This document shows, piece by piece, positions 5,960 to 48,000 of a DNA stretch of 52,668 nucleotides (position 1 is its first letter; every line of letters starts with the position of its first letter). The position numbers were made by a program, and so were the translations under genes. The notes beneath the pieces are model-generated. The model worked only from the letters and a program-made list of their open reading frames with translations. It did no database searches and was not told where the DNA came from. Source of the stretch: an uncultured Solibacteraceae bacterium (GTDB lineage: Bacteria; Acidobacteriota; Terriglobia; 20CM-2-55-15). The stretch covers positions 1 to 52,668 of the forward strand of contig CAZOZZ010000006.1 of assembly GCA_964584435.1 (NCBI GenBank), in the 5' to 3' direction.

Positions 5960-6023
5960 GTCGAGCGGATCTTCAACCCCATTCCAGACCGCGAGATGGA
6001 TTTTGCATTGTTCGGGAGTGAGT

Positions 6024-29900: not shown

Positions 29901-32900
29901 GCGCCCCATATTGATGTATTGGGCACCGCCCCCTGGAAAGAGAAAGGCCACAGAGGTGCCGGACCGCGCCGCGGCGGCGAACGAGTGAGGCGAATGTGTA
30001 TTGGCGAGCGCTCCGCTCGCATGGCTCACATCCGGTGAAACAACAATTCGGCGATGCTCAAACACGCGCCGTCCGGTTGCAAGCGTGTAGGCCACATCCC
30101 CCAGACCACTGTTCGGCCGCGCCGCGAGATGGTTCGATAGGTGCCCGGCGACCTCTTCCAGCTGATCGCCGGACGGCGCGGATAGCGGCAGCAATTGATA
30201 GGTCCTCGCGGCCACACCGACAGGACGGTACGGTGCCTCTTCCAGCACGGCATGGGCATTCGTGCCGCCAAGTCCGAACGAACTCACCGCCGCTCGACGG
30301 GGAGAGTCCGATGCGTCCCAATCCCGCAACTTGCAGTTGACAAAAAAAGGACTGTTCTTGAAATCGACTGCAGGGTTTGGAGAGACGAAGTTGAGGCTCG
30401 GTGGAATCTGTTTTCGATCGAGCGAAAGCACCGTTTTTATCAAACCTGCAACGCCTGCGGCGGCATCCAGATGGCCGATGTTTGTTTTGACAGAGCCAAT
30501 TGCACAATAACCAGTCCGTGCAGTCCCGGCACCGAAGACCCCGGTGAGGGCAGCAAGCTCGATGGGATCGCCCAGGCTCGTTCCCGTGCCATGGGCTTCG
30601 ACGAGGGAAATCGTGTCCGGGTCAACACCCGCCAGGCTCTGAGCATCGGCGATCGCGGCGGCCTGTCCTCCGACGCTCGGTGCCGTGTATCCGACTTTCG
30701 CCGATCCGTCGTTGCTGACCGCGATGCCTTTGATGACGGCCGCAATGTGATCCCCGTCGTGTAGGGCTTCGGACAGGCGCTTCAACACAACAATTCCGGC
30801 CCCGCTCCCGCTGACGGTTCCCCGCGCGCTGGCGTCGAAGGCGCGGCAATGGCCGTCCGGCGACAGGATGCCTCCTTCGTCATAAAGGTATCCTTCGACC
30901 TGGGGCACTTTCACCGATACTCCACCGGCCAGCGCAATGCTGCACTGGCTGTTGAGCAGCGCCTGACAGGCCAACTGCACGGCAACCATGGAGCTGGAGC
31001 ATGCGGTACCTACCGCGACGCCCGGACCTGTAAGATTGAGCTTGTAACACACCCGCGTCGCGATGAAATCTCGTTCGTTTCCGATCAGGACAGGATAGAC
31101 CCCGATCGACTCGATGAGATCCTGATTGCTATACAGGTTGTTCAGTAAGTACGAATTGAGACTCGCGCCGGCATACACTCCGATCCTGCCGTCATACTGT
31201 TCCGGCACATAGCCCGCATTCTCCAGGGCCTCCCAGGCACACTCGAGAAACAACCGGTGCTGGGGATCCATCACTGCGGCTTCGCGGTCGGGTATGCCGA
31301 AGAACTCGGCATCGAAGTATTCGATGGAATCCAACAAGGGCTTGCTCTTCACGTAGCGCGGGTTCCGAATCAGGGACTCGGATACGCCGGCAGCCAACAG
31401 CTCTTCATCACTCAAGTCCCGCACGGATTCGACGCCGTTTTTCAGATTGCTCCAGAACTCTTCAGTATTGCTCGCTCCGGGAAACCGCCCCGCCATGCCA
31501 ATGACCGCCACATCCATTGTCCGCGCCTCGAGCGGACGGACCTCGGCAGCGGTGACTATTGGGCCAGGCTGGCTCTCGTCGGTCTCCAGAAATTGCGCCA
31601 GCGCACCAATAGTCGGATAGGAAAACAGATCGACGAGAGCGATTTCGCGTTCATAAAGGATCTGCAGTTGACGATGGACCTCGATGAGCAACAGTGAATG
31701 GCCGCCCAGATCGAAAAAATTATCATCTGGACCGACATCACTGCGCCGGAGGACGCCACGCCATATTGCCGCAAGAGGCTCCTCCCGGGCGACAAGGTTC
31801 GCATGGGAAGAAGGCGGTGAACTGTCTGGAGAGGGCAACGTGGCGTAGTTCGTCTTTCCGTTGCCGGTCAACGGAACCGAAGGGATGTCGACGATCCGCG
31901 ATGGAACCATGTAATCCGGCAACGTGGCCTTCAAGTGCGCGCTCACCTCCCTTTTCCATTCTTCAGGCGCACCCGGCTCCAGCACCACGTAGGCCACGAT
32001 TCGCTTGTCGACGTCCCGAAGATCATCGGAAGGCTGCCAGAGGGTCACCACGGCCTCGCGGACAGCGGAAGACGAGGCAAGAGCACTTTGGACTTCGCCA
32101 AGCTCCACCCGATGTCCCCGAATCTGCACTTGCCTGTCGTTCCGGCCCACGTATTCGAGCGAGCCATCGGAAAGCCACCGGCCAAGATCACCCGTTCGAT
32201 AAAGCCGTTCGCCTGCTTCGAAGGGGCTACTGATAAATCGTTCCGCATTCAGATCGGGACGGTTCAGGTAACCCCGGCATACTCCCGTTCCTCCGACGAA
32301 CAATTCGCCCGTGACACCGACAGGCTGAAGATTCATCTCGTCATCGCAGACGTAAACGCGGGTTTCGGGAAGCGGTACACCTATCGGGCTGATTGACCCA
32401 CCGCCTTGTATGTGCTCCTGACAGAGTGGCCCGTACGTGACATGGACGGTCGTCTCGGTGATTCCGTACATGTTGATCAAACGCACCTGCTCCAGGGGAT
32501 ATATCGAGACCCAATCACGTAACTCCTCAGGAGAGAGGCGATCTCCACCGAAGATTACATAACGCAGGCTCTGCTCCAGATCGTGCTCGGAGACGCCCCG
32601 CTCGACTTCGATCATCCCGTAAAATGCCGCGGGAGTCTGATTGAGAACGGTGACTCGATGCTCTCGAATCAGTTCTCGAAGAGCAGCGGGGTTGCGGGCG
32701 GCGCTTCGAGACGCGATGACCGCTCGTCCGCCATAGAGAAGCGCACCGTACAATTCCCACACGGAAAAGTCGAACGCGAACGAGTGGGCAACAATCCAGG
32801 TGTCAGTCTCATTGAAATCGAACGGAAAATGCTCGTTCTTCATCAACCGGACAACATTCCGATGAGTGACGGCACACCCCTTTGGCTGCCCGGTCGAGCC

Positions 32901-35900
32901 CGACGTATAAATGACGTACGCCACATCATCGGACGACACGTGCGGGAGAACAGTGTCTTCACTCTCGGAGACTGTCGGGGAGATATCGAGGACTTCCCCG
33001 CCGAACAACCCGCGTAGCGACTCCAGGTGGGCGGTCTCGCTGAGAGCTAACGCCGCCCCGCAATCTTCCAGGATGAACCGGACTCTCGAAGCCGGATAAG
33101 AAGTATCGATCGGCACATACGCCGCGCCGGCTTTGAGAATCGCGAGAAACACGACCGGCATCTGCTCGGACCGCTCGATGAAGACGGCCACATAACGTTG
33201 ATTGGTCGGTTTACCGGCCAAGCGCACCGTCACCTGTCGTGCCAGGAGATCGGCACGCAAATTCAATTCATCGTAGCTGAGGCGGTTTTCCTCGAAAATC
33301 ACCGCATCGGAGCCAGCGCGCAATGCGGCCCGCTCTTCGAAGAGAGAAACAATCGTGCTGTCGCTCGGATAGTCGCTGTCTGTCCGATTGGCCGATTGGA
33401 TAATCTCGGACTCGGCAGGTGGAACAAATTCAATAGCACCGCATCGCTGGGAAGGATCTCGAACGACTTCATTCGCCGCGTGCTGCAACTGCCCCGTCAT
33501 TCTTCGGATCCGGGCCCGACTGAAGAGGGCTTCGCTGTACTCGATATAGCCTTCGATTGATCCGGCACGCTCCTCAAAAACAAAATTGAGATCAAACTTG
33601 CTTGTTTGCTTCGGATCCGTGAAGGGCAGGATCTCGAGACCCGGAAGACTCAGTTCGGAGCCCTCGACATTCTGTAACGTGATCGCAACCTCGAACAGAG
33701 GAGACCGGCTCACGTCTCGCACCAGGTCCAACTCCGACACAAGTAGATCGAACGGATAATCCTGGTGTGCATAAGCGTCGAGCGCAGTCTGTCTGACGGA
33801 CCCCAGAAGCCCCGAGAAGGTCATCTTGCCGTCCACGCGATCTCGCAACGGCAGCACGTTGACATAAAAGCCCACTTGGTTTTCCAGATCGGCGTGCTGC
33901 CGGCCGCTAACCGGACATCCGACCGTCAGGTCGCTTTGCCCGCTGAGACGGAACAGCAGGAACTTGACGATCGCGGACAGCGTCATATACAGGGTCGCGT
34001 TCGCCGATCGGCTCAACGCATGGAGTCCTGTCGCCAGCTCGGAGTCGTATTCGAAGTGTTCCCGGCCTCCAGAATAGGTCTTGACGGGGGGCCTCGGAAA
34101 ATCCGCAGGGAGATCCAGAACGGCGAGGGGACCGGCAAGCTTCGTGCGCCAGTAGTCGCGATCCGGTATGGTCTTCTCTTCATGAAGAAGAGCGGCCTGC
34201 CAGTGGGCATAGTCCTTGTAATGGATTCTAAGCGGCGAGAGTGCCGTCTGGTCGCCGCGCGCCCTCGCCTCATAGAAACGGGCGAACTCCCGAATCAAGA
34301 TTCCAAGACTCCACGCGTCCGAAACAATGTGATGCACATTGAAGCACAGGACCACCCGATCGTCCCCCACCTTCAGGAGGGCCACACGAAGCAACGGCCC
34401 TGCTTCCAGATCGAATTCGGCCTCTGTATCTGCAGCAGCCCACTCCAACGCGGACTGTGACGGATTCAGTTCGCTACGACAGTCCACGTGGTTGAGGGAA
34501 ACACTCAAATCGGCATGGATACGCTGCCAGAGACCTCCATCAACTGCCACAAAGGTCGTCCGTAAGGCCTCGTGCCGCCGAATCACGTCCGACAAAGCTT
34601 CCTCGAAGCAATGGACCCGCAGCTCGCCTTCCAGCAGAACCAACCTCTGCATGTTGTACGCTGTCGACGCTCCCAAACGAGCGAGCGTCCAGAGGCGGCG
34701 CTGGGCGTGCGACGCCAGATACAACTCGGCTACGGGAGCAGGCGTGATCGGAGTGGATCTCCTCGGCGTCGCCGCTCGAACCCAGTTGGAAAGGTCCCGG
34801 AGCCGTGGAAAGCGGAATAGCTCGCGCACACCGATGGGAATCCCGAACTCCCGGTCGATCCGGTTGGCCACTTGAATGGCTTTCAGGCTGTGTCCGCCAA
34901 GCAGAAAGAAATCGTCTCCCGCTCCGATAGGAGCACGGTTGAGGACCTCGGTCCACATGCCCGCAATCCTGCTTTCGACATCGTCCAACGGACCAACGAT
35001 CTCATTCGAACGATCATCCTTTGCTCCGAGCGCCTCAAGGGCGGCACGATCGATCTTCCCATTCCTCGTCAATGGAAGCGTTTCAACAATATGGATCCTT
35101 GAAGGAAGGAGGTATCTCGGCAGCCTCTCGGCCAAAAAAGCCTGGACCTGATGGACGGAAGCATCGGCTACGGCGAAAGCCACCAGTTCCGTCTCCGTGT
35201 CTTCATCGCGAACAACGACGGCGCACTGCCGCACCTCCGGATGCTCTTCGACCGCGGCCTCGACCTCCAGCGGATCGACCCGGAACCCCCGGACCTTGAC
35301 ATGGCTGGCGACGCGTGCAACGAACTCGACACTGCCATCCGCGCCATATCGGCCGAGATCACCGCTGCGATACATCCGATCTCTCACATTCGCCATCGGC
35401 TCGCAGTCCTGGAAACGATCCCGCGTGAGCTGCTCCGCGTCCAGATAACCTTCGCAAAGCAGAGGCGTGCGGATCCAGATCTCAGCCAACTCTCCGACGC
35501 CTGCAAGCCTTCGCTGTTCGTTTAACAACAGCAGTTGGACCGAGTCGATCGGATGGCCCAGAGGCACCGGGGCACCCGACAAACCGTCGTCCAGCTCAGG
35601 GGACCTCAATAGCCGCCACGCCATCGCCTGCGGTGTTTCCGTGGCGCCATAGAAATTAACAAAGGAGCATCCTGGCGCCCATGCGTGAAGACGCTGCGCG
35701 TCGCCGTAGAGCAAACGGTCGCCTCCGAAGAAGACGAAGCGCAGAGCAGACAGATCAGCCGCTGCCGCCTCCCGGGGGGGGATGATCTGCGCCAGGGGCG
35801 GCGTCAGGTGAGCAACCGTGATTCCCTCTTCTCTAAGCCAAGCCAGCAGGCGCTCTCCATTTCCCTTCGCGATTACGGGGGGAATATGGAGGGACGCGCC

Positions 35901-38900
35901 GATCGCGAGGGGTGTAAAGAGATCTCGCAATGCAGGGTCGTGTGCGATTCCCGAAAGAAGGCTGAAGTGGTCCTTGGCCTCCAGGCCGAAAGTGCGGGTG
36001 TGCCATTCCAGAAAATGGGTCACCGGACCGTGAGTTCCGACAACACCCAGAGGACCTCCCGTTGTGCCCGAAGTGAAGGCAACGTACGCGAATGCCTCTT
36101 CCGATACCGCCACCGGCAGGATCCCGTCGGGACACGGTTCAAGATTTGCGGTCACCTCTGCCGCTGAGGCGCCCTGCAGTTTCTCCAACACTACTTGGTT
36201 AGAAGCCAACGCCTCAAATTCATCGGTATTACCGGCCTCGTCCAACACGATAATTGCCGCGGGAGATGCTATTTCAGCAATCGACCAGAGTCTCTGCGGC
36301 AAGTTGTCCGAATCGAGAATCGAGAAAGCGCAGCCTGATTTCAGGACAGCCAACACCGCACAGACAAGCGATGCCGATGGCGCCGCATAGATGGCAACCG
36401 TCTCGCCCGACTGCACCCCGATCTGCCGAAGGCGATACGCGAGCCGGGTACTTGCTTCGTTCAGCTCGCCATAGCTCCACGATCCGCTCTCGCCGACAAC
36501 AGCTAAACGATCCGGATGCAGCACAGCCCGATTCATGAATAATTCATGAATCGCGCCGCATTGTTTGGCTTTGAGCGGGACACTCACATCCGGCAACGCC
36601 CGGTGGTCCTGCGGCCGAATCAAAGAATACTCGCCGATTGGGATTCGAGGGCTTTCCACGATCTGCTCGATCAACAGCGTCATGTGATCAAGAATGCGTT
36701 CGACCGATTCCGGTCGATAAAGACGCGCATTGTAGACCAACTCAAAGTGGATTCGGCCCATCTCGTGTTGCGCGTACAATGTGATATCGAAGCGATTGGG
36801 GAGCTCCTCGACCGCATACGGGCTGACTTCCAGGCCGGATAGTTCCAGGTCCGCTTTCCGCAAGTTGAGAACGTTGAGGAAGATCTGAAAGATCGGGTTG
36901 TACGCCAGGTCACGGGATGGCTGCAGCGCCTCGACGATTTTCTCGAATGGGAACTGTTGATTCGCAAACGCGCCAAGCGCAGTGTCGCGGACACGGGCAA
37001 GCAAGTTGAGAAACGATGGATTTCCACTGACATCAGTCCGCAGCGCAAGAGTATTCACGAAACAACCGATGACAGCTTCGAGCTCTTGCCGATCGCGGTT
37101 CGCGGTCGGCGTGCCGATGACAACGTCATTCTGGCCGGAATAACGGAATACCAGAAGTTTCAACACTGCGAGCAGGAACATGTAGAAAGTCACGCCCTCG
37201 CGCTTTGTCAGAGCCTGGACGGCTGGAGAAAGCTCCCGCGGGAGTGTTCGCTTCGCCATGCCGGCTTCCCACTCCACTCCGTTGAGACGCGGAAAGTCGG
37301 TTGGAATCACCGAGAGAGGTGGCGCACCCTCCAGCTTCGTCTTCCAATAGCCGAGCCCCTCATCAAAAGCTTCACCTGCCAGCCACTTCCGCTGCCACAC
37401 CGCATAGTCTGCGTATTGCAGTGCAAGCTCCGGCAAGGGCGACGGCCGTCCGTCGAGAATCGCCTCGTAGAGCGTTCCGAGCTCCTCAAAAAACACGCCG
37501 CGCGACCAGCCGTCCGTAATGATGTGGTGAATCGTCAGGAGCAGCACGTGCTCGCTCGCTCCAAGCCGGATCAATGCCACCCGCAAGAGCGGCCCCTCCG
37601 TCAAGTCGAACGGCTCACCGTTGATTCGTGTCGCGAAAGCCTGAATCTCTCCGGGCCAACTATCGGAGCTCACGTTCTCGAGATCACATTCCAACAACGG
37701 GAGTTCGAACGGCCCCCGAATGACCTGCCGTAGTTCACCGTCACGGCTGAAGAACGACGTCCGTAAGCTTTCATGCCGCCGGACCAGTTCGTTCAAACCG
37801 GCACGAAGGACGCCGATGTCCAATGCTCCACGCAATCGCAACGCGCCTTGCGCGTGATACGCCACGCTTCCGGGCTCCAGCTGATCGAGGAACCAGAGTC
37901 TCTGCTGAGAGAACGACACCGGCAGGTCCGACGCTCTTTCGACCCTGGGAATTTTCTCGCTCCGGTCGGGTTCATGTTTCGAGGGCGAGGCCACTTCGGA
38001 CGCGAGCCTCTCCAGCAAAGCCTGAGCTTCGGATGGCGCTATTCGAGTTTCATCGTACAGGGCCTGAATTCGCAGGGTCGCCGTATCGATAACGAGCCGG
38101 AAGGGCGCATCGACGTTTGGGTCTATGTATGACGCGGCATCGGGGTCCAAAGCGAAGGCGGTGCGACCAAGCGCGGGCCAGTCACCGGTCAGCGTGAGAG
38201 TGCTGTCAACAGTGCTGGAATCCGAACCCGTGTTCGCGAAGAGACCGAGGACGGATTCCGACCCGGCTACCGATGGAGGACGGCCCGGGATCACAAGCCC
38301 GAATGACGAATCTCCGGACACGGACGCCCAGAGGTCGCGGAACATACCCACGAGTCCCGATTTGTGTCGAAAGGCCTCGGTGCGCAGCACCTCTACGGAA
38401 GTATCTGGCAGGGTGACGTCGGTTCTACGGAAACCGCGCAAGCTGGAGGCAGCATGGTGTGGCTGAACGTGAGCCTCAATGTGTGACTTTGAAGCAAGAA
38501 GCACCTGTCTGTAGTGATTGACTGCACCTGTATCGACCGTACGTTCGGCAAACAGACGGTCGTAGCTCGAAATCAGGTTCCTTAAGAGAAGAAATACAGC
38601 CCATCGGTCCAGCAGCGCACGGTGATAGGTGACAACGAGCCGCATCGGGCCGGTTGGGGGCTGAAGCAGGCAGAAGCGGACCAATGGTGCTGTGCCGAGC
38701 TCAAACGGTTGTGAAGCATCCCGCTTCAGGAAATCCGGTAAAGCGGCGATGTCAGTTGAAACGATAGCCCCGAGGCTGACTCGCGAGACGATCTGAACCG
38801 GCGCCTCCTCCTCTTGACAGAGGAGAGAAGTTCGCAGAACTGCCTGAGTTCGAAAAAGATGCTCCACCGACTGACGCAGCAGAGCGATGTCTATCGCTCC

Positions 38901-39029
38901 GTCGATAGACGCGACGAACTGTTCCATCTCGAAACCGGGCTTTGGGGTCGCCCGAACACAGGCGAGGACTTCCACCTGAAATGGTGAGAGCGAATAAATC
39001 GCCTCGATGTCTTGACGGATGCCGCTCAT
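23961..39029 (-). CDS. hybrid NRPS-PKS, modules 3-5 plus one PKS module: C*-C-A*-T-C-A-T-KS-AT-KR-ACP-C-A-T (5,022 aa)
   Basis: aa 1-348: shortened C-like domain (DIEAIYSLSPFQ; YHRALLDRW in place of HHxxxDG). C (SFSQQRLWFLDQ; HHIITDGWS, HH 501-502). Divergent A (aa about 820-1331). T (LGGHS, Ser1381). C (HHIVSDAWS). A (DFWNIGMVHK). T (Ser2445). KS (GTACSSS Cys2677, EAHGTGT, NIGH). AT (GHSLGE Ser3124; VAAHS). KR (ITGGTGGVG aa about 3604; Ser3737/Tyr3750). ACP (RGDSL, Ser3897). C (HHIVADGWS). A (DILQLGVIWK). T (GGHS, Ser4949). My residue count closes exactly on 5,022. Confidence 0.97.
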   Translation of the reverse strand: MSGIRQDIEAIYSLSPFQVEVLACVRATPKPGFEMEQFVASIDGAIDIALLRQSVEHLFRTQAVLRTSLLCQEEEAPVQIVSRVSLGAIVSTDIAALPDFLKRDASQPFELGTAPLVRFCLLQPPTGPMRLVVTYHRALLDRWAVFLLLRNLISSYDRLFAERTVDTGAVNHYRQVLLASKSHIEAHVQPHHAASSLRGFRRTDVTLPDTSVEVLRTEAFRHKSGLVGMFRDLWASVSGDSSFGLVIPGRPPSVAGSESVLGLFANTGSDSSTVDSTLTLTGDWPALGRTAFALDPDAASYIDPNVDAPFRLVIDTATLRIQALYDETRIAPSEAQALLERLASEVASPSKHEPDRSEKIPRVERASDLPVSFSQQRLWFLDQLEPGSVAYHAQGALRLRGALDIGVLRAGLNELVRRHESLRTSFFSRDGELRQVIRGPFELPLLECDLENVSSDSWPGEIQAFATRINGEPFDLTEGPLLRVALIRLGASEHVLLLTIHHIITDGWSRGVFFEELGTLYEAILDGRPSPLPELALQYADYAVWQRKWLAGEAFDEGLGYWKTKLEGAPPLSVIPTDFPRLNGVEWEAGMAKRTLPRELSPAVQALTKREGVTFYMFLLAVLKLLVFRYSGQNDVVIGTPTANRDRQELEAVIGCFVNTLALRTDVSGNPSFLNLLARVRDTALGAFANQQFPFEKIVEALQPSRDLAYNPIFQIFLNVLNLRKADLELSGLEVSPYAVEELPNRFDITLYAQHEMGRIHFELVYNARLYRPESVERILDHMTLLIEQIVESPRIPIGEYSLIRPQDHRALPDVSVPLKAKQCGAIHELFMNRAVLHPDRLAVVGESGSWSYGELNEASTRLAYRLRQIGVQSGETVAIYAAPSASLVCAVLAVLKSGCAFSILDSDNLPQRLWSIAEIASPAAIIVLDEAGNTDEFEALASNQVVLEKLQGASAAEVTANLEPCPDGILPVAVSEEAFAYVAFTSGTTGGPLGVVGTHGPVTHFLEWHTRTFGLEAKDHFSLLSGIAHDPALRDLFTPLAIGASLHIPPVIAKGNGERLLAWLREEGITVAHLTPPLAQIIPPREAAAADLSALRFVFFGGDRLLYGDAQRLHAWAPGCSFVNFYGATETPQAMAWRLLRSPELDDGLSGAPVPLGHPIDSVQLLLLNEQRRLAGVGELAEIWIRTPLLCEGYLDAEQLTRDRFQDCEPMANVRDRMYRSGDLGRYGADGSVEFVARVASHVKVRGFRVDPLEVEAAVEEHPEVRQCAVVVRDEDTETELVAFAVADASVHQVQAFLAERLPRYLLPSRIHIVETLPLTRNGKIDRAALEALGAKDDRSNEIVGPLDDVESRIAGMWTEVLNRAPIGAGDDFFLLGGHSLKAIQVANRIDREFGIPIGVRELFRFPRLRDLSNWVRAATPRRSTPITPAPVAELYLASHAQRRLWTLARLGASTAYNMQRLVLLEGELRVHCFEEALSDVIRRHEALRTTFVAVDGGLWQRIHADLSVSLNHVDCRSELNPSQSALEWAAADTEAEFDLEAGPLLRVALLKVGDDRVVLCFNVHHIVSDAWSLGILIREFARFYEARARGDQTALSPLRIHYKDYAHWQAALLHEEKTIPDRDYWRTKLAGPLAVLDLPADFPRPPVKTYSGGREHFEYDSELATGLHALSRSANATLYMTLSAIVKFLLFRLSGQSDLTVGCPVSGRQHADLENQVGFYVNVLPLRDRVDGKMTFSGLLGSVRQTALDAYAHQDYPFDLLVSELDLVRDVSRSPLFEVAITLQNVEGSELSLPGLEILPFTDPKQTSKFDLNFVFEERAGSIEGYIEYSEALFSRARIRRMTGQLQHAANEVVRDPSQRCGAIEFVPPAESEIIQSANRTDSDYPSDSTIVSLFEERAALRAGSDAVIFEENRLSYDELNLRADLLARQVTVRLAGKPTNQRYVAVFIERSEQMPVVFLAILKAGAAYVPIDTSYPASRVRFILEDCGAALALSETAHLESLRGLFGGEVLDISPTVSESEDTVLPHVSSDDVAYVIYTSGSTGQPKGCAVTHRNVVRLMKNEHFPFDFNETDTWIVAHSFAFDFSVWELYGALLYGGRAVIASRSAARNPAALRELIREHRVTVLNQTPAAFYGMIEVERGVSEHDLEQSLRYVIFGGDRLSPEELRDWVSIYPLEQVRLINMYGITETTVHVTYGPLCQEHIQGGGSISPIGVPLPETRVYVCDDEMNLQPVGVTGELFVGGTGVCRGYLNRPDLNAERFISSPFEAGERLYRTGDLGRWLSDGSLEYVGRNDRQVQIRGHRVELGEVQSALASSSAVREAVVTLWQPSDDLRDVDKRIVAYVVLEPGAPEEWKREVSAHLKATLPDYMVPSRIVDIPSVPLTGNGKTNYATLPSPDSSPPSSHANLVAREEPLAAIWRGVLRRSDVGPDDNFFDLGGHSLLLIEVHRQLQILYEREIALVDLFSYPTIGALAQFLETDESQPGPIVTAAEVRPLEARTMDVAVIGMAGRFPGASNTEEFWSNLKNGVESVRDLSDEELLAAGVSESLIRNPRYVKSKPLLDSIEYFDAEFFGIPDREAAVMDPQHRLFLECAWEALENAGYVPEQYDGRIGVYAGASLNSYLLNNLYSNQDLIESIGVYPVLIGNERDFIATRVCYKLNLTGPGVAVGTACSSSMVAVQLACQALLNSQCSIALAGGVSVKVPQVEGYLYDEGGILSPDGHCRAFDASARGTVSGSGAGIVVLKRLSEALHDGDHIAAVIKGIAVSNDGSAKVGYTAPSVGGQAAAIADAQSLAGVDPDTISLVEAHGTGTSLGDPIELAALTGVFGAGTARTGYCAIGSVKTNIGHLDAAAGVAGLIKTVLSLDRKQIPPSLNFVSPNPAVDFKNSPFFVNCKLRDWDASDSPRRAAVSSFGLGGTNAHAVLEEAPYRPVGVAARTYQLLPLSAPSGDQLEEVAGHLSNHLAARPNSGLGDVAYTLATGRRVFEHRRIVVSPDVSHASGALANTHSPHSFAAAARSGTSVAFLFPGGGAQYINMGRDLYNSEPYFREQVDHCCDVLASELGGSFRSVMYPPAGEETAAAAKLLSPSLGLPALFITEYSLAKLLMSWGIQPGAMIGHSLGEYAAACLAEVLDLKDALRIVAFRGRLFEKVAPGAMLSVQLVEERVRTLLDDSCDIAAVNLPGSCVISGTTEAIENARALFESHGVESHRLHISVAAHSRLVEPILRSFREFLETLTLGVPQIPFLSNTTGTWITDREAQDPAYWTNQLRQTVRFAEGVRSLFDDPLRVLVEVGPGSALTSVVRQHPHMSGGQSVFPTLPHALEEGQSSVATVLTGLGRLWIEGVPVDWKAFYSGQEPARVPLPGLSFNRKRLWIEPRRAGDDAGRGSTVKRAHVDDWFYTSAWRRAMPPVTEADSTRSWLILSDGGAVASGLAERLGREGHEVDLVEHPDVASLLADRAKSGCLPDRIIDFSGSAVRLNRIATAWKDLAPNRPILITEITCCAHDVTGDEAIDPLQGAVRGPVVVIGQENAYITCRSIDVGPEVAGEPRLTELLGNEILSSQPDMFVAFRHAHRWTLAHEPLRIPVGAGRLRKHGVYLITGGTGGVGAILARYLARTQRARLVLFSRHAETSGVGLAEEIERLGGEALLLSGDVSRPDDVFAAVQRTRTRYGDFDGVIHAAGTTSGSSIFTPFEELEESHFVEQSEPKLGGARALAKALEGVDLDFVLLISSNATVLGGLGLAAYAAANCAMDAFALVQNRRGVTRWITSAWDGWPTLRRERIDSSQATAMDRMEMTLEESEMAFSIVVGAPTGGVVVSSHDLFSRLDRWKDVSENRTGDKTEQSGQQDEPGTQAPQDGSIEGRLVALWKEMLGTEHIGNQESFFELRGDSLLGSRMITRLNSMFGSTLPLKSLFESPTILGLAQKIRGETESVGSRIPRAPDQDRYTLSRAQRRLWLLCQFEEGSRAYHIPLVVRLDGDLDRAALARAFTTIIGRHESLRTRFVSNGEDPVQEVLSDISWEMPFSDLSSADDAESASVCEAKRFSGLPFALDRAPLMRAQLIRLAPKRHELHLVLHHIVADGWSLSILSRELRVAYNAFRGGTSPDLPSLRLQYRDFSYWQNRFLESDEASRSASYWDRQLAGELPVLDLPADFPRPSTPSFEGDMLTLALGSNFRARIEAFATAHRATPFMALYSVLVVLLHRYSGSMDVVVGTPVAGRSHPDLEDQIGFYLNTIVLRSRIDPDVSFAEFLRQVRATCLDAYENESHPFDDVVDRDTSTRDLSHSPLFDVLISLQNAGAVDLKLDGIAVEAVAIPNKTAKYDLSFDFAAEGDDLLLGLRYRTDLFSRERIERMAAHFFELADHAITNPEVACGKLNIVPGTERSKLMTSFQGATLPLANEVTLLDLLEEHVRKTPHNAAVSFEDRTWTYQEVDSRSTEIAAYLMSRSEAAETVAAVCLERSMDLLAALLGILKAGFAYVPIDPAYPDHRCIQMLQDSGASVVLVDADTEGRVEELIGSEETKSRILPLHKSIETDNPRPLPKVGASQLAYVLYTSGSTGVPKGVEVEHGALANLLLSFKEMIGMTDKDAFLSLTTVSFDIAGLELYLPLISGGLTVIASSAMAVDGEAIGKRLARGDITLMQGTPSTWRMLLAAGWKGSPELTILCGGEALHRGLASSLFARCGRFWNVYGPTESTIWSTACRIDSNHVAEGAPPVVSIGKAIHNTSVYVLDRWLQPSALGVPGELFIGGVGLARGYRGQKMRTRERFITDGDGRRLYRTGDVVRFDSTGLLEFLGRTDHQVKVRGHRVETGEVEAALCRHESVQEAAVVCVSNDEGETALAAYIVAFGTVEASALRSHLKMLLPAYMTPSAFVTLDALPLAANGKVDRSALPEPSAFSSEAAFEEPRDAMEVAIGTVWEQVLDVRPISIHDDFFRSGGHSLAATRAVFRLQKELNVPVTMMELFRNPTIASLASLLRARPRSTEIATAASGSSDHADPVSLTPDELELLRFDE
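27225..31520 (-). other. KS-AT-KR-ACP PKS module embedded in the 5,022-aa protein
   Basis: KS Cys codon verified at 30999-31001 (gca on the plus strand). See the parent CDS for the AT, KR and ACP motifs. Confidence 0.9.
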
Positions 39030-42000
39030 CCTTCAGATCCGCTCCCTCTGTCAGGGCCGATCGACTGCAAGACACGCCGCAATCCAACCTCACTCAAATC
39101 GGTTTCCGGTTCTAAAGCGGACTCGGTAACAGGCTGACACAGTTCCCGGAGCGAAGACTCAAAGGAATTCGCCAAAGCCTGAATGGTTTCGTCCCGATAC
39201 ATAGCGGAGCTAAAGGCAAAGTCCACCAGGAGACGACCGTCTAGAATCCACGAGTTGATTTCGATACGATGAGAAGAGCGATTCGCGAGGCTCCGCTCAT
39301 GCGCCCTATCGCCTTCATCGATGCCGACAACCAGACTTCCCCCGGCCACTTGATCGAACTGTCCAAGATAATTGAACAGGATTTCGGTTCGCGCGACGCC
39401 CAACTCTTTCCGGACAGCCGGATCGTCGCCGAGGTACTTCAAGACGGAAAAGCCAAGTCCGTGCCGCGGTACCCGACTCCGTGTCTCTTGTATCTCGCGG
39501 ATGGTTTCCCCAAGCGGGCGCCCTCCGTGAATCTTTAGAAGAAACGGATAGATGCTGGTGAACCAGCCAATCGTTCGCGTCGGGTCGACGCGGCCCAACG
39601 TCTCACGCCCGTGAGCTTCGAGATCGACCAAAAGCTTACAATCTCCAAGCCAGACCGCGAGTGCCTGAGTCAGACACCCAAGCAACGCATCGTCCATTCT
39701 GATACGCCCCGACTTTGAGAGGCTCCCTAGAACCAGCTTCGTCGGATCTCGGTCCAGAGCGAGGGTGGCATGTGCCTCGGTCGCAACGGTATTGCTGTCA
39801 GGTGAGGCATTCAGGTCGAGCGGCAAGGAGGCCGTTTTGACGGTGACGATCTCCCGCCAATATGGAAGCTCCTTGACGAAACCTCCGGACTGGACCTCGT
39901 GGTCGAGTTGGGCGATCCATGCTTCCACGGGATTTGTCGGCAACAGTAGGACCGGACTCCCACTTTGAAGTTGTTGGTAGGCGGTTTCGAGATCCTCCGT
40001 AAGAATGCGGCAGGACACGCCGTCCGAGATCAGGTGATGAAGCACCAACAGGAGCCGACCGGGGTTGCCTTCGGAAGATTCGAATAATGCGGCTCGAACC
40101 AGCGGAGGCTCGGAAAGGGTCAGGCTCTCTTGAAGTCGCCGCGCTATCGAGTCAAAAGAGGTAGACCCATCGGGGTACACTTCAAGGGGGATCGAACCAC
40201 CCTTAGGGTCGACATGGCGAATCCAGCCATCGGAATCCTTTTCGAACCAGGAACGCAGGGCGGGGTGATGTGCGGCAACACGATCCAGGGCCTGCCCGAG
40301 CAACTCGGACGAAGTGCCGGGAGCGATGTCCAGATGCAGGGACATATTGTGGTGATCCGGGTTGGGTTGATTCTGATCAAAGAACCACCGCTGCGCAGGA
40401 AGTAGTCGCGACTCCGACGCAACCGCAGCAATTTCGGGAGTTGAACCCGCAGAGACCGAGTCCGGCACGAGAGCTAACTCGGCAACGGTTGGGAAACGGT
40501 GCACATCGCGGATGCTGATTGGCAGGCCAGCGGCGCGGGCGCGCGAAACGACCTGCATGGCGATTATGGAATCCCCGCCCAACTCGAAAAAATTATCGAA
40601 AATACCAACCTGCCGCAGTCCAAGCACCTCCGCCCAGATGGAAGCCAGGCCGGATTCCACGGTGTCTCGGGGAGCGGCATACGCCTCGAGCACTTCGGCG
40701 GAACCGTCACGAGGCGTCGGCAAAGCCGCCCGATCGAGCTTTCCGTTCCGTGTCAGGGGAATCCGATCAATCGCCAAGAAGAAGGTCGGGACCATATGAC
40801 CCGGTAGTCGCCCTGCGCAGAACTCCCGTAACTCCGTGGTTGCAGCAGGGGAGGAACCATCACGGAATACGATGTAGGCGACCAGGTGGGTGTTCGCGTC
40901 GGAATCCTGTGTCTTTCGCGCGTTGACCACCACGTCTTCGATCTCGGAGTGCGCGCGAAGGGCTGCTTCAATTTCGCCGGGCTCGATGCGAAAGCCATGA
41001 AGTTTGAGTTGATTGTCCGCGCGACCCCGGTATTCGATGTCGCCATCGGGCAGCAATCGCGCAAGGTCGCCGGTGCGATAAAGCCGGTCTCCTGGCCGGA
41101 ACGGACTCGCAATGAAGCGCTCTCGCGTCAGTTCAGGACGGTTCAGGTATCCCCGGGCGACTCCAGCACCACCCACAAACACCTCGCCGACGACGCCCAT
41201 GGGACTTGGCATCAGTTCGGAAGTCAGAACGTAGAACGACAAATCTGGGATCGGCCTGCCGATCCGTCTGGATCCGATCAGCTTCGCATCCCCGGAGGTC
41301 AGAGGCCGATACGTCACATGCACCGTCGTCTCTGTGATGCCGTACATATTCACAAGCTCTGGCAAACGATCGCCATGACGCTCGAACCACGGACCCAGAG
41401 TTTCCAGGTCCAGGGCCTCACCCCCGAAAATGATCAGGCGCAACTTCGGATCACGCGACGAGTCCGCGTCGGCTCTCATAAACTCCCGGAATGCCGAAGG
41501 CGTCTGATTGAGCACGGTGACAGCTTCGTCACACACAAGCCGGTGGAAGGCGGACGCATCGCGCCGAATCCAGTAAGGTGCGATGACCAGCCTGCCGCCA
41601 TACGTCAAGGCACCGAAAATCTCCCAAACCGAGAAGTCGAACGCGCAAGAATGAAAAAGAGTCCAGACGTCCCGATTGTTAAACTCGAACGATGGCTGCG
41701 TTGCAGAAAACAGGCGTGCCAGCTGGCTGTGCTGAACCAGGACGCCCTTCGGTTTTCCAGTCGACCCCGACGTATAAATGACGTAGGCGAGACTCTCCGG
41801 TTGAAGCTTCGAAACCGGGTTCTCGGCGGAGCACCGCGTAATCTGCGGATCGTCCGCATCCAGAAGAATCGCCTCGAGAGCATCACGGTCACCCAGAAGC
41901 TCACCGACTCTGGACGTGGTAATCAAGATTGGCGCGCGGCAATCATCCAGTATCAGCGAGAGCCGCTCGACCGGATATGACGGATCGAGTGGCACGTATG

Positions 42001-45000
42001 CCGCGCCGGACTTCAGTACAGCGAGAATGCTGACGATCAAGTCCAGCGACGGATCGAGGCAAACCGCAACCATGCTCTCCGTCCCGATTCCTTTCGAGAG
42101 GAGATAATGCGCGAGTCGGTTCGCCTTGTCGTTCAACTCCCGGTACGTCAGTCGGTCTTTCTCACAAACGATGGCGATGCCTTCCGGACTTCGTTCCGCC
42201 CACTCTGCGATCACATCGGGTACCGAGGTGGAAACCGTGAAGTCTCGTTCGGCCTCGTGTAGCCGCAGCAGCCTCGCTTGCTCGCTTGGTGTCGACAGTG
42301 ACAACTTGCAGATCGGCTGGCTTGTGACGGTCGCGAGCGATTCGATGAGGTTTCCGTAGCTCGCCAGCAAACGCTCAGCGTCGTCGGATGAGTAGCGATC
42401 AATGCTGTAGTCGCAATCGAGGATCAGCTCTTCGCCGGTGTCGATCACGTTCAGCATCAATTCGAAATCTGAAAAGTGGACCGGATGCGGGAACAACCGA
42501 AGCGTCAGGTCTCCGGTGTCCGCCAGCTTTCCGGGCGTATCCAGGTTGAAGGTCGCCGATATCAACGGTGACCGGCTGAGGTCGCGGCGAGGATCGACAC
42601 TCTTGAGCAACGCGGCGAAGGGATAATCTGAATTCGTATACGCGTCGCCCAACACACGCCGAATGGTCGCGACATGTTCGGCAACCGTTGAATCGGGATC
42701 CACTTCGACGGGAACCGGCAGAATATGAGTGCAATAGCCAACAAGGGCGTCACTGTTCTCGAGACCTCGCCCAGCCACGGAAATACCGATCGATAACTCG
42801 CGCTGCCCCGTCAAGCCATGCATTAGAGCTGTGTAAACCGCATAGAGTCCAATGAACGGCGTGCACTTGAGTTCCGAACAGCAGGCGAACAAGTCTCTCC
42901 GCGCTGCGGACGATAGCGTCAACGTTGCCCGGCGGCTCTGGTAGGTTCGTTCCGCGGAGGGGATCGTGTCGGAAGGAAGGGCCAGGGGGGTCATTCGGCC
43001 GGAACATTTTTCCGTCCAGTAACGCTCCTGAGCTGCATAGGAGCTGGTTGCTGAAAACCGCTCCTGCCACTCGACATATTCCCGATATTGCATGGCCGGA
43101 CCGAGTTCCGGATTCAAGCCGCGACAGGCCAAAGAGTACAAGGAAAGCAGTTCCCCCATCATATTAGTCATGGACCATCCATCCGTAACGATATGGTGGG
43201 CTGTCATTACCAGGACGTGTTCATCGGCATCGAGACGAAGCAAGTCGCAATAGAACAGTGGGCCGGTGTCCAGCGCCATTGGGGTATGGTTCTTCTCTTC
43301 AAACCACCGCTCGATTGCCTGCTCTCTTTCCGAGCCGGCGACGGACGTAAAATCGACAATGCCAAGCTCTCTGGCCTCGTCTGGCAACACCCGCTGAAAT
43401 TCGCCCTGGAGATCGAATACGGTCCGAAGCGCTTCGTGGCGCTCGACAAGATGGCGCACGGACGCGTTGAGCTTCGCGCTGTCGATTGGGCCCCGTAACT
43501 TCAAGCTCAGGCCGGTTTGATAAGCGAGCGAGCCAGAAGGGTGTATCTGGGACATCAGCAGCAACTGACGCTGCGCTTCGGTTAGAGGAAAGGTGTCCTG
43601 CGGAGAAGACGAACCAGCCTGTGCGCCTGGAGCAATGAAACCGCCCGAGCGCAATTCGTCGATCGCAGACTCTGCGGAGCGTACGACGTGATCCAGGTCG
43701 TCTTCCGTGTGCGCCGTCGACAGGAAACATCCCCTCCACTCCCACACGTAAACGCCTTTTTCGATCAGGTGGTAAAAAAACAGGTCCAGGTTGCCGGTAA
43801 ACTGAATACGGAAAGCGGATCCAAAATTTACAGCGTGCAGCGGCGCGTTACGCTCGTCGAAAGCTCGATTCAGACGGACGGCCAGTTCCTCGGTGCGCCG
43901 ATTCAGGCCCTCTTGCAGTGCGGGCCCCTGCCGTTTCAACTCGTTCAGAGTCGCCACTGCCGCGACCATGGTCAGCGGATGCTGACAAAATGTTCCACCG
44001 AAGAACGTTCGTTCCGCACCGGGCAACGAATCATCCCCATAGTTCCAGGCTCCGCCGTCGATCCCATCGAGAAACTCCCGCTTCCCCGCGACCACTCCGA
44101 TCGGCATGCCTCCACCGATCACCTTCCCGTAAGTGACGATGTCCGCATCGATACCGAAATAGGCCTGCGCACCTCTTGGGTGCAGCCGGAAGCCGGAGAT
44201 CATCTCGTCGAAGATCAAAGCCACTCCACCGTCACGCGTGACGTTGCGTAAGTCGCGAAGAAACTCGACGGGCTGAAAATCGAGACTGAGGTTTTGGACG
44301 GGTTCTACCAGAACGGCGGCGATTTCGTCCTGGTGCTTGCGAATGTAGTCCAGCGCATCCGACGATCCATATTCGAGGACGATCGTTGCGGCAATAGACT
44401 CCGGTGGAATTCCGGGCGCCATGGCCTCGCTTGCCGGCACGCCCTCGATCTCGGCCGGCAGAACCAGCGTCTGGTCGGAATGGCCGTGATAGCTACCCGC
44501 GAACACGACCAGAAGCCGCCTCCTGGTGGACGTCCGGGCCAGGCGGATGGCGGCCATCACCGCTTCAGTTCCGGAGTTACAGAAAGACGCGCGCTCACTG
44601 CCGGTCAAATCACAAATGAGCGCTGCAGCCTCGCCCGCCAGTTCCGAGCGCGGGCCCAGGAGTATTTCCTGACCAGCATGCTCTCGAAAGGCATTCGTCA
44701 AGAACTCCGGGTGATGTCCGAACAGGGTGACGCCAAACCCATTGGTGATGTCGATGTATTCATTTCCGTCCAGGTCCCAGAACCGCGAACCTGCCGCACG
44801 AGCGCCGACGATAGGATAGAGAATCTCCTTGAGTGGAAGCCGGAATCCGACACTTGCCCGGCTGTCCGCCAAAACGTCACGGTATTGTGCAGCATGATGC
44901 TTGGACTTTGCCGTCCGCCTTGTATATCTCTTAATCAAGGCTGTAACGTGACGCTGTTGCTGTGGGGTGAACGATACGCCGAAACGATCGCCGCGGCTGG

Positions 45001-48000
45001 ACACATGTCGTGTCTTTCCCCTCTTCGAAGGTTTCGACGCCTGCGCCGCAGGAGCTTCCGCTACGGCCCGGGGCACCACAGCCTTGCCGTCAACTTCACG
45101 CAACATCTCAAGCTGCCGCCGCATGATCTCGAGTTGGTCGTTGACGATCTGATGAAGACTTCCGGCAGTTGCATCCGCAGGGATCATTGCGCCCGGAACA
45201 ACCGGCAAGTCGTCCGTGGACGGTGGAGTTGCCCGATCCAGCAGAAGATCCGCCTCGGGAGGAACTGTCTCGTCCGCAATGTGTCGCGCCAAGGCGCCCA
45301 CCTCGGACAATGCATCGAGCAGATCTGCAAGCTGGATCGTCAACCCGAATCGTTGCTTCACCAACCGATTAACCTTAATCAGTGCCAGTGAATCCAGACC
45401 GAGTTGGAAAAAGGAATCCGCACCGTTGATCTTCCCCTGCGGTATTCCAGACACCTCGGAAACGGTCTCGAGAACTCCCGCAAGCACTCGATTGAAGTGG
45501 TTATCGTCTTTCACCGTGATTGTCGATGCTGTAGGTGTTGGATTTGAAACGTCAGTTTGACCGGAAACGTCTGCTTCCGCAAGACGATGCCGCGCAATCC
45601 AGAAGCTCTCGCGCTCGAAGGGATAGGGAGGCAGCCGGACCCGCCTTCGCTGCTCGAATGCATAGAATCCGCTCCAGTCGACTGCGGCCCCGGAGACCCA
45701 AAGCCGCCCGAGCGTCTCCAGAAGCAGTTCGGAATCCGCCCGCTCAACCTGTGGATGGCGCAAGGAAGTCAGCACGAGCGGCGCTTCCGCCCCAGCGCAA
45801 TTCTGGATCGTCAACGTCGCAAGTGTCCGGCCAGGCCCAACTTCCAGAAGGATCCGGCTTGAATCTTGCGTCAGTGTCTGTATGGCCGTCGAAAAACGCA
45901 CGGGTTGCCGCATGTGACGGACCCAGTATGCAGGATCCATCGACTCCTCGGGCGTGATCCATGTTCCGGTCAGATTGGAAACCCAGGGAATCTGGGGCTG
46001 CGAAAACGAGAGGGCTTCCAGGAATCGGCTGAACTCGTCCAGAACCGATTCCACTTCCCGGGAGTGGGCGGGTGCAGAAAAATGAAGGTCGGCAAACTCC
46101 ACATCAGCGGAACTCAACTTCGACTTGAGATCGGAGATTTTGTCTGCCGGACCTGAAACCACGCACGATTCAGGAGCATTGACGGCAGCGAGCGAAAGCC
46201 CTTCATTCAGGTAAGGCGCCAAGTCGCCTTCGGACAGGCACACACTGAACATTCGCCCCTTCGGAAGTCCCTCAAGTAATCGTCCCCGCAGAACAACGAG
46301 TGACAGAGCATCGTCCAGACTGAAGACACCCGAAATGCAGGCAGCGACGTATTCACCGAGGCTGTGTCCGATCATAGCCGCTGGTCGAATTCCCCAGGAG
46401 ATCCACAACTGCGCCAGTGCGTACTCGGTAGTGAATAGTGCAGGTAGCAATAACGAAGCGGAATCCATGCAATCCCCAACTGTGCCGCTTCCGAAAATCA
46501 CGTCCCGGATGTCCACACCCAGAGGGGTCTCTAATTTTTCAGCACAAGAATCCAGATGCTGCCTGTACGCAGGCTCGGAACGATATAATCCCTCCCCCAT
46601 TCCGACGTATTGCGACCCTCCGCCGGGAAACAAAAAAGCTATACTCCGGGCTTCGGTCGCAATCTCGCCAACATCAGAGACCGGTTCGCGTTCCGAGGCG
46701 ACCGCCGAATCGGTCGCGTAGAGATAGAACTGCCGAGCTGAAAACTCCCGACGTCCGCATGCCAGAGTAAAAGCCGCGTCCTCCAACGAGACTTCGGCGT
46801 TCTCACGAAGAAATTTGACCAGCTCCGCGCCAGTCCGGGTTAACGCACTCGCGGTCTTTGCAGAAGCCACCAGCAGTTGATGAGGCCGTGTCGAAACGGT
46901 GACGGGTTCCGTTGCCGGAGCCTCTTCCAAGACCACGTGAGCGTTGGTTCCCCCAAGACCGAATGAGCTCACGGCAGCCCGCCGGGGCTGCCCCTGGGTC
47001 GCCCCCCACTCCGTAAGCCTCGTATTGACAAAGAAAGGTGTGCGGGCGAAGTCGATCTCCGGGTTAGGATCCTCAAAATGCAGGGTAGGTGGAATCTGCT
47101 TATGATGAAGCGACAGCGCCGCCTTGATCAGGCCGACCACGCCGGCCGCGGTGTCCAAATGCCCGATGTTGGATTTAACGGAGCCAATGGCACACCTGCG
47201 GACTCCATCGCCTCGGGCACCGCCATACGCCCGGCTTAGCGCCGCGACCTCCAGGGGGTCGCCAACCAAAGTGCCGGTTCCATGCGCCTCCACGTATCCG
47301 ATCGATCCCGGGTCGACCCCAGCAACGGATAAAGCTTCCAGAATGACCTGGGTTTGACCCTGCACACTCGGCGCGGTGAAACCCGCCTTCACATCTCCAT
47401 CATTGTTGACGGCGGAGCCACGAATGACGGCGTGAATGTGATCGCGGTCCGAGAGCGCCTCCGGTAGCCGCTTCAGCACGACGATCGCGACGCCGCTTCC
47501 AGCCGAAATTCCTCCTGCCTTCGCGTCAAAGGGGCGGCAGCGTCCGTCCTTCGATAGAATTCCTCCTTCGACGTACAAGAAGCCTTCATCCTGAGGAACG
47601 GGGATGCTGGCCCCGCCCGCGAGCGCAATTTCGCACTCGCCACTCAGAATGCTCTGGATGGCCAAATGAACGGCCACCATTGAAGTAGAGCATGCTGTGG
47701 CAACGGTGACACTTGGCCCCTCGAGTCCGAGCTTGTAGGAAACGCGACTTGCCAGAAAGTCCTTTTCGCTTGCCGTGAGGAGTTCGTGGTAATCGGTCTG
47801 CTGCATCAGCGCCGGATCGCTCGCGAGATTGTGCAGCAGGTATGTGTTCATGCCACAGCCGGCAAACACCGCGACGCGGTCGTGCGGACGGCCGTGAATG
47901 TAGCCGCAACCTTCCAGGGCATGCCACGACGATTCGAGAAACAGCCGCTGTTGCGGATCCATCAACTCCGCCTGCCGGGGCGTGTAGCCAAAGAATGCGG

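Follow-up and report, generated by a model that had tools for sequence, protein, structure and literature searches.

The window analysed here is a stretch of 52,668 nucleotides (contig CAZOZZ010000006.1) from an uncultured Solibacteraceae bacterium, which carries on its minus strand a cluster of nonribosomal peptide synthetase (NRPS) and polyketide synthase (PKS) genes. The present work deals with the head of a 5,022-aa NRPS/PKS protein encoded by the open reading frame (ORF) at 23961-39029 (minus strand; N-terminus MSGIRQDIEAIYSLSPFQVEVL). Two condensation (C) domains follow each other there: a shortened domain of the DCL type, hereafter C* (aa 1-348; 37986-39029, minus strand), which is most likely vestigial, and an intact one, hereafter C2 (aa 372-816; 36582-37916, minus strand). 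The upstream ORF (39026-48241) encodes a 3,071-aa protein, the C-terminal part of which consists of adenylation (A), carrier (T) and epimerization (E) domains. Its stop codon overlaps the start codon of the 5,022-aa protein in an ATGA (39026-39029, minus strand), with AGGGAG located 12-17 nt upstream, which points to translational coupling. The first-pass annotation of this DNA had placed a DCL-type domain at the opening of the 5,022-aa protein, behind a protein ending in E, and this assignment was confirmed.

On the minus strand the cluster begins with a TEII gene and a C-A-T gene. These are followed by gene 3 (the 3,071-aa protein, KS-AT-ACP-aminotransferase-C-A-T-E), gene 4 (the 5,022-aa protein, C*-C2-A-T-C-A-T-KS-AT-KR-ACP-C-A-T), two genes with the organisation C-A-T-C-A-T-E and DCL-A-T-C-A(MT)-T-TE, and a PPTase gene. 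C* stands at the head of the translated product of gene 4, and no ATG start is found close to C2. Oxygenase, P450 and other tailoring genes are absent from the window, and the contig ends 420 nt past the TEII gene.

It was considered whether the tandem arrangement is an assembly or binning artefact, i.e. a chimeric join of repeated NRPS sequence in a metagenome-assembled genome. The genome is a draft of 227 contigs, and NRPS repeats are prone to mis-assembly. However, the 5,022-aa protein was recovered in two further database assemblies, where it differs by 1-2 substitutions, all outside aa 1-348. Moreover, C* is no copy of any other domain of the window (at most 30% identity), the composition is continuous and unremarkable across the region (GC3 of 0.626 for C*, inside the range of the gene), and the linker remnants described below equal those of orthologues residue for residue. 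An artefact is hardly conceivable. The GC3 value also ruled out a foreign origin of C* by composition. An origin from the other E-DCL junction of the cluster, by duplication in recent times or by gene conversion, was rejected as well, the respective DCL domains being 30% and the E domains 34% identical. Half of the synonymous sites differ in the N-terminal motif common to both junction heads.

The Pfam Condensation profile matched C* only at residues 9-182 (profile positions 2-184 of 456). The profile alignment, which had been proposed to look for a full-length functional C domain, thus returned the N-lobe only, with a disabled motif, and the idea of a decayed domain stands. The same holds for its size of about 348 aa, which falls short of the 430-450 aa or so of a C domain with both lobes complete. 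In alignments to DCL domains and orthologues, the active-site motif HHxxxDGW is replaced by the degenerate HRALLDRW (H136-W143; 38601-38624, minus strand), with H136-R137-x-x-x-D141-R142-W143 standing against H-H-x-x-x-D-G-W. The first His is kept, while Arg stands in place of the second, catalytic His (R137, codon CGT) and of the Gly (R142, codon CGA). The motif had been reported earlier as YHRALLDRW (codons 38601-38627); its letters and position were right and its register was off by one residue. The N-terminal C1 motif DIEAIYSLSPFQ (aa 7-18; 38976-39011, minus strand), which is also the COM-acceptor junction motif, is retained.

Compared with the positional orthologues presented below, C* lacks 81 residues, all in frame, in runs of 2, 18, 4, 2, 24, 23, 4 and 4. 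These deletions take in the C4 region and, behind C5, two helices and the FENYP strand. The C5-like block VLGLFANTGSD (aa 260-270; 38220-38252, minus strand), recognised by alignment, is followed by a loss of 47 residues in all, located behind aa 282 and behind aa 290; in the model of an intact DCL domain used as control, the lost part contains the elements H315-328, H337-342 and E353-357. The block and the approximately 80 aa behind it had been described correctly at first pass. These 80 aa are not a stump, however: by structure prediction and orthologue alignment, they include the hairpin and the helix that genuinely close a C fold (aa 309-348; 37986-38105, minus strand). C* was thus shortened by internal in-frame deletions, and the C-terminal end of the domain is present. 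A set of 70 DCL domains has 87 columns with a conservation of 80% or more, and C* keeps 44 of them (51%; functional DCL domains: median 91%, minimum 69%). Measured per column, its profile score amounts to 22-34% of the normal value over the N-lobe and drops to about zero over the C-lobe, and every segment, the N-lobe included, scores under the range of functional DCL domains. Finally, C* has no acceptor carrier of its own module, the next domain being C2.

These features bear on the question of whether C* could be a working catalyst with a variant motif that shares a carrier with C2. Tandem C domains that function are known from the icosalide synthetase (PMC10510592), some DCL domains tolerate a changed second His, and a C fold is still predicted for C*. 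Against this stand the replacement of both second His and Gly by Arg, the 81 deleted residues with the C4 region, the two C-lobe helices and the FENYP strand among them, the low share of conserved columns, the deletion of the acceptor carrier and the raised substitution rate reported below. Catalysis by C* is very improbable, and the icosalide tandem is a poor model for it, given the deletions. Regarding the changed His, full-length DCL domains in ordinary E-C-A context that read HQxxxDGW, with Gln in place of the second His, were seen in P0010, P0021, P0042, P0048 and P0072; in this subgroup the catalytic His is apparently dispensable or replaced, as far as the sequences tell.

The fold of C* was predicted with AlphaFold2 (AF2) using a 72-row alignment. 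A C fold was obtained with a pLDDT of 79.9 and a pTM of 0.78; the intact DCL domain of the same cluster, modelled with the same reference rows, reached 93.2 and 0.91. Block-wise, the pLDDT of C* was mostly 84-94 over residues 11-160 (N-lobe) and 50-84 in the C-lobe, and it rose to 84-93 for the strands (310-315 and 320-326) and the helix (332-347) at the end of the domain. The model displays a solid N-lobe and a trimmed C-lobe. The C-lobe, the absence of which had been suspected, is not wholly missing, as the last hairpin and helix are kept. A genome scan with a 13-row alignment led to 80 generic DCL loci, and these loci served only as AF2 alignment and reference set.

Comparisons of sequence and fold placed C* among DCL domains. 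Its nearest PDB sequences are McyB, SrfA-C and TycB1, all of them DCL domains following an E domain, and the top Foldseek matches of the model were SrfA-C and TycB1 (TM 0.75-0.78). A tree of 197 context-labelled domains of the C superfamily placed C* within the DCL clade, its terminal branch measuring 2.54 substitutions per site (DCL median 0.66, maximum 1.15). Among 1.8 billion representative proteins, 17,043 significant matches were obtained; the best were ordinary DCL domains with about 30% identity over residues 5-285, and many of the best matches sit at a protein N-terminus. Relatives of more than 33% identity were found neither among these representatives, nor among 5.8 billion proteins (word-indexed search), nor in 41 related genomes, and a profile scan of the genome contigs with a two-sequence C* alignment gave no match. 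By these searches, C* is a sequence singleton, with no conserved family of similar sequences around it.

The second option of the first-pass annotation was a non-catalytic scaffold or recruitment domain, considered here as a platform to which an enzyme acting in trans would be recruited. The model for it is the X domain (Tcp12, PDB 4TX2), a non-catalytic C fold with the motif HRxxxDD that recruits P450s (PMC11546977, PMC10510592). C* is likewise a non-catalytic C fold with Arg for the second His, and its HRxxxDR shares the H-R pair, i.e. the first two residues of the X motif (PMC11546977), with HRxxxDD/E and differs at the last position. However, the X domain is full length, LCL-related, located between the last T and TE, conserved as a family and provided with P450 partners. 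C* groups with DCL domains and gave no match (E <= 0.01) to the X-domain structures 4TX2 and 6M7L, both of which were matched by C2 at 1e-45 to 1e-47 (3.9e-47 for 4TX2). The X domain was also absent from the 50 best fold matches of C*. The interface (I) domain of beta-hydroxy-Asp/His siderophore NRPSs (Reitz et al. 2019, cited in PMC12230676) offers another histidine-less C-like subunit head; it depends on a hydroxylase of the TauD type and stands before an A domain, whereas C* stands before a C domain, and no TauD-family gene (PF02668) was found in the 94%-complete genome. The position as subunit head before another C domain, the lack of P450, oxygenase or tailoring genes in the window, the ordinary DCL ancestor displayed by intact orthologues and the lack of a family of C*-like sequences further argue against recruitment, which is improbable. 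The proposal of an X-like domain was thus not supported, and a non-catalytic scaffold survives solely as the docking head discussed below.

C2 is a complete C domain, as had been claimed. The Pfam profile covered it in full (residues 368-812), and its motif HHIITDGWS (aa 501-509; 37503-37529, minus strand) is intact. It was assigned to the LCL type by tree and context: it falls within a clade (support 0.98) made up of C domains placed immediately behind A-T, and its best PDB matches are the LCL domains of Txo1/2, DhbF and TycC6. In 117 large synthetases, the 60 domains closest to it were found behind A-T in 57 cases and N-terminally in three, and never behind E. None of 67 metagenome relatives had a C-like domain upstream of it. 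These sequence relationships indicate that C2 is LCL-type by descent. The module served by C2 continues with a Lys2-like A domain (aa 831-1330; 35040-36539, minus strand; hand-derived approximate code DPRHFGFQAK), in which an AHDP motif and a P-loop FTSGTTGGPLG with Leu for Lys were observed. The carrier serine motif LGGHSL (aa 1377-1382; 34884-34901, minus strand) marks the sole acceptor carrier downstream of C* and C2. By elimination, it is C2 that must read the D-configured donor. The same E-to-C2 handover arrangement also occurs in cis in a fused relative, P0200.

The E domain preceding C* (aa 2604-3035 of the 3,071-aa protein; 39137-40432, minus strand) was recognised by the Pfam Condensation profile, by its motifs and in the tree, where it groups with other E-position domains. 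The motifs E1-E7 are all present (LPAQRWFF, HHLISDGVS, EAHGRE, RTIGWFTSIYP and FNYLGQF). The A domain of the same module displays the threonine code DFWNIGMVHK, hand-read from an alignment. A look-up of the exact sequence of the 3,071-aa protein returned no database entry.

The origin of the tandem was examined with related clusters. Searches for orthologues via C2-A-T were swamped by multi-module proteins, with the query itself ranked about 100th, and a metagenome scan with C2 returned only generic LCL domains. The aminotransferase segment, a rare part of the upstream protein, led to three full-length orthologues of the latter (P0376, P0377 and P0379), each of which ends in E and is 49-50% identical to it across about 3,030 aa. 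A phylum-wide genome search with the same segment found other aminotransferase hybrids, none of them collinear at the E junction. The three orthologues belong to the sister clusters L184, L185 and L186 (metagenome contigs Ga0455910_0000062, ERZ1700618 contig 101291 and Ga0599171_0000504). In all three, TEII, C-A-T and KS-AT-ACP-AmT-C-A-T-E occur in this order, followed by a gene starting with C-T-C-A-T. That gene encodes an intact DCL domain (T(T/H)HHILLDGW, about 420-445 aa), a carrier (FFDLGGHSL) and then C2-A-T. An adenylation-less C-T module is therefore located between E and C2 in the three sister clusters.

The adenylation-less DCL-T modules lie at L184:18816-20600, L185:17602-19400 and L186:18814-20600, with HHILLDGW and GGHS intact. 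Judging from the domain content, their carrier must be loaded in trans; no stand-alone A gene was found in the 10 kb upstream of them. The C-T-C arrangement as such occurred 15 times in 255 large synthetases.

In comparison to the sister clusters, the window lacks 101 residues in frame, exactly at the carrier domain. L185 reads MRSRAIPRV, then the 101 residues including FFDLGGHSLL, then ERRDRFPPSFQQERLWF; the window reads DRSEKIPRV followed directly by ERASDLPVSFSQQRLWF. In the window ...KIPRV continues immediately into ERASDLPVSFSQQRLWF, the C-T and T-C linkers being united by the deletion of the T domain. The fused linker PSKHEPDRSEKIPRV-ERASDLPV (aa 349-371; 37917-37985, minus strand), delimited by orthologue alignment, contains the scar between V363 and E364 (nt 37941/37940). 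Both linker stumps are still recognisable in the window and match the orthologues residue for residue. The orthology of C* rests on synteny and on these stumps, since the tree does not group C* with its positional orthologues. The earlier suggestion of a recombination scar is thus right insofar as a T domain was lost from a DCL-T unit that is intact in three sister clusters; the event is the loss of a module, however, and no recombination junction lies inside the C domain.

A fourth relative, P0200 (7,160 aa), was found by chance among the matches of the word-indexed search. It is collinear with both window proteins: residues 835-3036 of the upstream protein are 47.9% identical to P0200 499-2637, and residues 370-4997 of the 5,022-aa protein are 49.2% identical to P0200 2642-7158. 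In P0200, E runs straight into C2 (...LSELTRGPAPPASYGQERLWFL), with neither C* nor a gene boundary. The search of homologous clusters for the same tandem thus returned DCL-T-C2 in the sisters and E-C2 in P0200, and it points to how the tandem originated. P0200 also has no counterpart of the AT region of the first PKS module: its KS is aligned up to 483 and the alignment resumes at 499, opposite window positions 45739-46728 (aa 505-834). The first PKS module of P0200 may be trans-AT or have a deleted AT.

The rates of the individual domains were compared next to these losses. The orthologous DCL domains of the sister clusters are 50-66% identical among themselves and the orthologous C2 domains 56-72%; because of these values, sister DCL and C2 are regarded as being under similar constraint. 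C* displays only 26-29.5% identity with the orthologous DCL domains, and the C2 of the window 49-51% with its orthologues. Three-point branches leading to the window amount to 1.40 for C*, 0.50 for C2 and 0.74 for E, and those of the L184 and L186 lineages to 0.26-0.48 for all three domains. From these distances, C* is the only one of the three domains with a raised rate, roughly 2.8 times that of C2 in the same lineage. No acceleration is seen for the E domain, which probably retains its activity. In a four-point comparison on C2, the window and P0200 were separated from the three intact clusters by an internal branch of 0.18; this grouping would allow for a single carrier loss before the split of the window and P0200.

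All this makes it very probable that C* is a vestigial, catalytically dead DCL-type C domain, the fossil of a lost module. C* is called inactive because the motif changes, the deletions, the loss of the carrier and the raised rate occur in combination. In the ancestral state, an intact adenylation-less DCL-T module would have stood between the E-terminated subunit and C2. In the lineage of the window, the T domain was taken out by a 101-residue in-frame deletion, which left the C-T linker fused to the T-C linker. The DCL domain, left without an acceptor carrier, changed its motif to HRxxxDRW and lost the 81 further residues in frame. In P0200, the whole unit has disappeared, with E fused directly to C2. 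As a consequence, the carrier of the upstream Thr-T-E module would now donate straight to C2, and the product would therefore be one residue shorter than that of the sister clusters. C2, which would originally have taken its donor from the lost module, would now receive whatever E presents, and it may either select the L-epimer or have relaxed donor selectivity. C* itself would persist because it bears the translationally coupled start codon; once the two subunits are fused, as in P0200, it would not be needed.

Some points weigh against this interpretation. The loss of the second His alone is no proof of inactivity, because several DCL domains in normal context read HQxxxDGW. A tree of C* with its positional orthologues gave no grouping and a long branch for C*. 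The order of events is a parsimony argument based on four related clusters and an unrooted tree. Furthermore, a protein free of C* could in principle be produced from an internal start, as predicted from the sequence: the GTG codon 346 (37992-37994, minus strand), which lies at the C*-C2 linker and has GGAGAGG 13-19 nt upstream, was noted as a possible start.

Whether C* retains any role is a separate question. The E domain is followed by a C-terminal tail, ALEPETDLSEVGLRRVLQSIGPDRGSGSEG (39029-39118, minus strand), which contains a COM-donor-like amphipathic stretch recognised by its likeness to the other E-tail of the cluster, TGLSKADLDTILRKIR. This 30-aa tail contains DLSEVGLRRVLQSI and lacks the canonical TPSD motif; it is about 20-33 aa longer than in P0376, P0377 and P0379. 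Related amphipathic tails were observed on both E-terminated subunits of the cluster, DLSEVGLRRVLQSI (39029-39118) and LSKADLDTILRKI (16136-16200 region), and DIExIYSLSPxQ is common to both of the heads that follow. The Ser of this motif is unusual, Pro being found there in most DCL domains (YSL[ST]P 14 times vs YPL[ST]P 186 times in the sample). For COM acceptors, PMC11546977 quotes the fusion motif L(T/S)P(M/L)QEG. SLSPFQ (aa 13-18) in the head of C* corresponds to its first five positions, L(T/S)P(M/L)Q, and the EG that should follow is lost (QVE). Both partner termini carry lineage-specific extensions, the longer E-tail on one side and six extra N-terminal residues on C* on the other.

At most, then, C* retains the role of a docking head, which is plausible from these sequence features. 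The chances are roughly even that its N-lobe still serves as COM-acceptor for the tail of the E-terminated subunit. This role is favoured because the N-lobe is the better kept part, L-S-P-x-Q is kept, the relative devoid of C* is fused and both termini are extended. It is opposed by three observations: even the N-lobe of C* scores below every functional DCL domain, the C1 motif is preserved no better than the average of C*, and the three orthologues dock with shorter tails. A more specific version, by analogy with known adaptors, is a serious candidate whose chances fall somewhat short of even. C* would have been exapted as a dedicated C-fold adaptor, with the N-lobe binding the E-tail and the 23-residue tether presenting the carrier to C2. 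If this were true, C* would be the C-fold counterpart of the PCP-like adaptor of TomB and a natural rewiring of an E-terminated subunit onto a non-cognate C domain, and C2 would be an LCL-type domain that never evolved to dock with E.

Alternatively, C* may be a pure scar with no residual role, docking being ensured by other contacts, e.g. of E or T with C2. This would affect the docking role only and leave the vestigial nature of C* untouched. C* would persist since any frameshift or stop in it kills the downstream protein, while a clean in-frame excision has yet to occur. Such a scar agrees with the removal of the whole unit in P0200, with scores below the functional DCL range for all segments, N-lobe included, with a raised rate that fits relaxed constraint, and with the unremarkable composition of C*. 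However, the removal in P0200 came only with a gene fusion that made docking unnecessary. Profile score and AF2 confidence (84-94) both show the N-lobe to be clearly better kept than the C-lobe, the total branch of 1.4 substitutions per site would be below that expected under full neutrality over the lineage, and the partner termini display their lineage-specific extensions. A scar devoid of any role is a possibility to be kept in mind, albeit a doubtful one.

The vestigial nature of C* can be set against known systems. SrfA-C (PDB 2VSQ/8F7F), TycB1 (9BFD) and McyB (8HLK) are closest in sequence and fold, are likewise located after an E domain and share the N-terminal IExIYxLSPxQ. In contrast to these DCL domains, C* has HRxxxDRW, lacks the 81 residues and the acceptor carrier, and is not a working member of the group. 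The DCL-T units of L184, L185 and L186 are its positional orthologues, with the same flanking genes, flanking domains about 50% identical and matching linker motifs; their DCL domains are full length, with THHILLDGW, a GGHS carrier and about the conservation of C2, whereas C* is decayed and its carrier is gone. The C* domain of ACVS and the ADA domain of Lys2-type reductases (PMC7884236) are also shortened, motif-less N-terminal relatives of C domains, with a retained non-catalytic role. They consist of a C-lobe only, lie directly against an A domain and are family-conserved, while C* of the window is mainly an N-lobe, lies against a C domain and is a singleton. For docking, the nearest analogy is the BN domain of TomB, the tomaymycin NRPS (PMC11186497), a degenerate domain that is followed by a flexible linker before C and brings in the upstream carrier. 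TomB BN has a carrier fold and a demonstrated function, whereas C* has a C fold and a docking role that is proposed here by analogy.

Further observations were made on the remainder of the cluster. The threonine code DFWNIGMVHK is common to three A domains (3,071-aa protein aa 2011-2506, 5,022-aa protein aa 1897-2397 and 2,611-aa protein aa 504-998), and the A domain of the loading module has the near-variant DLWTIGMVHK. On the strength of these codes, the product of the cluster should be unusually rich in Thr-derived residues. The second C domain of the 2,611-aa protein (19241-20608, minus strand) follows a Thr module without E, yet the tree does not place it in the LCL clade. Among solved structures, it is closest to the McyA2 C domain, PvdL C3 and the CmodAA domain of AmbE, a dehydrating domain, and it may convert Thr to dehydrobutyrine. 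The PPTase gene closes the cluster, and just past it (5237-6670, minus strand) come a recombinase of the resolvase family and a GIY-YIG-like ORF, which suggest a mobile-element neighbourhood.

Degenerate C domains are often labelled "C*, probably inactive" without an account of their origin. Here, related clusters provide a series of states: an intact C-T unit in the sisters, a lost carrier with a decaying C domain in the window, and complete deletion with fusion of the genes in P0200. The series would offer a residue-level view of an assembly line shedding a step, and it points to the C-T linker, the T-C linker and the E-to-C junction as positions that tolerate cuts. It also places an LCL-type C domain directly behind E in two lineages. 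These arrangements bear on NRPS engineering and on the prediction of product and stereochemistry from sequence. For annotation, the cluster would have to be counted as one module fewer than the naive domain count.

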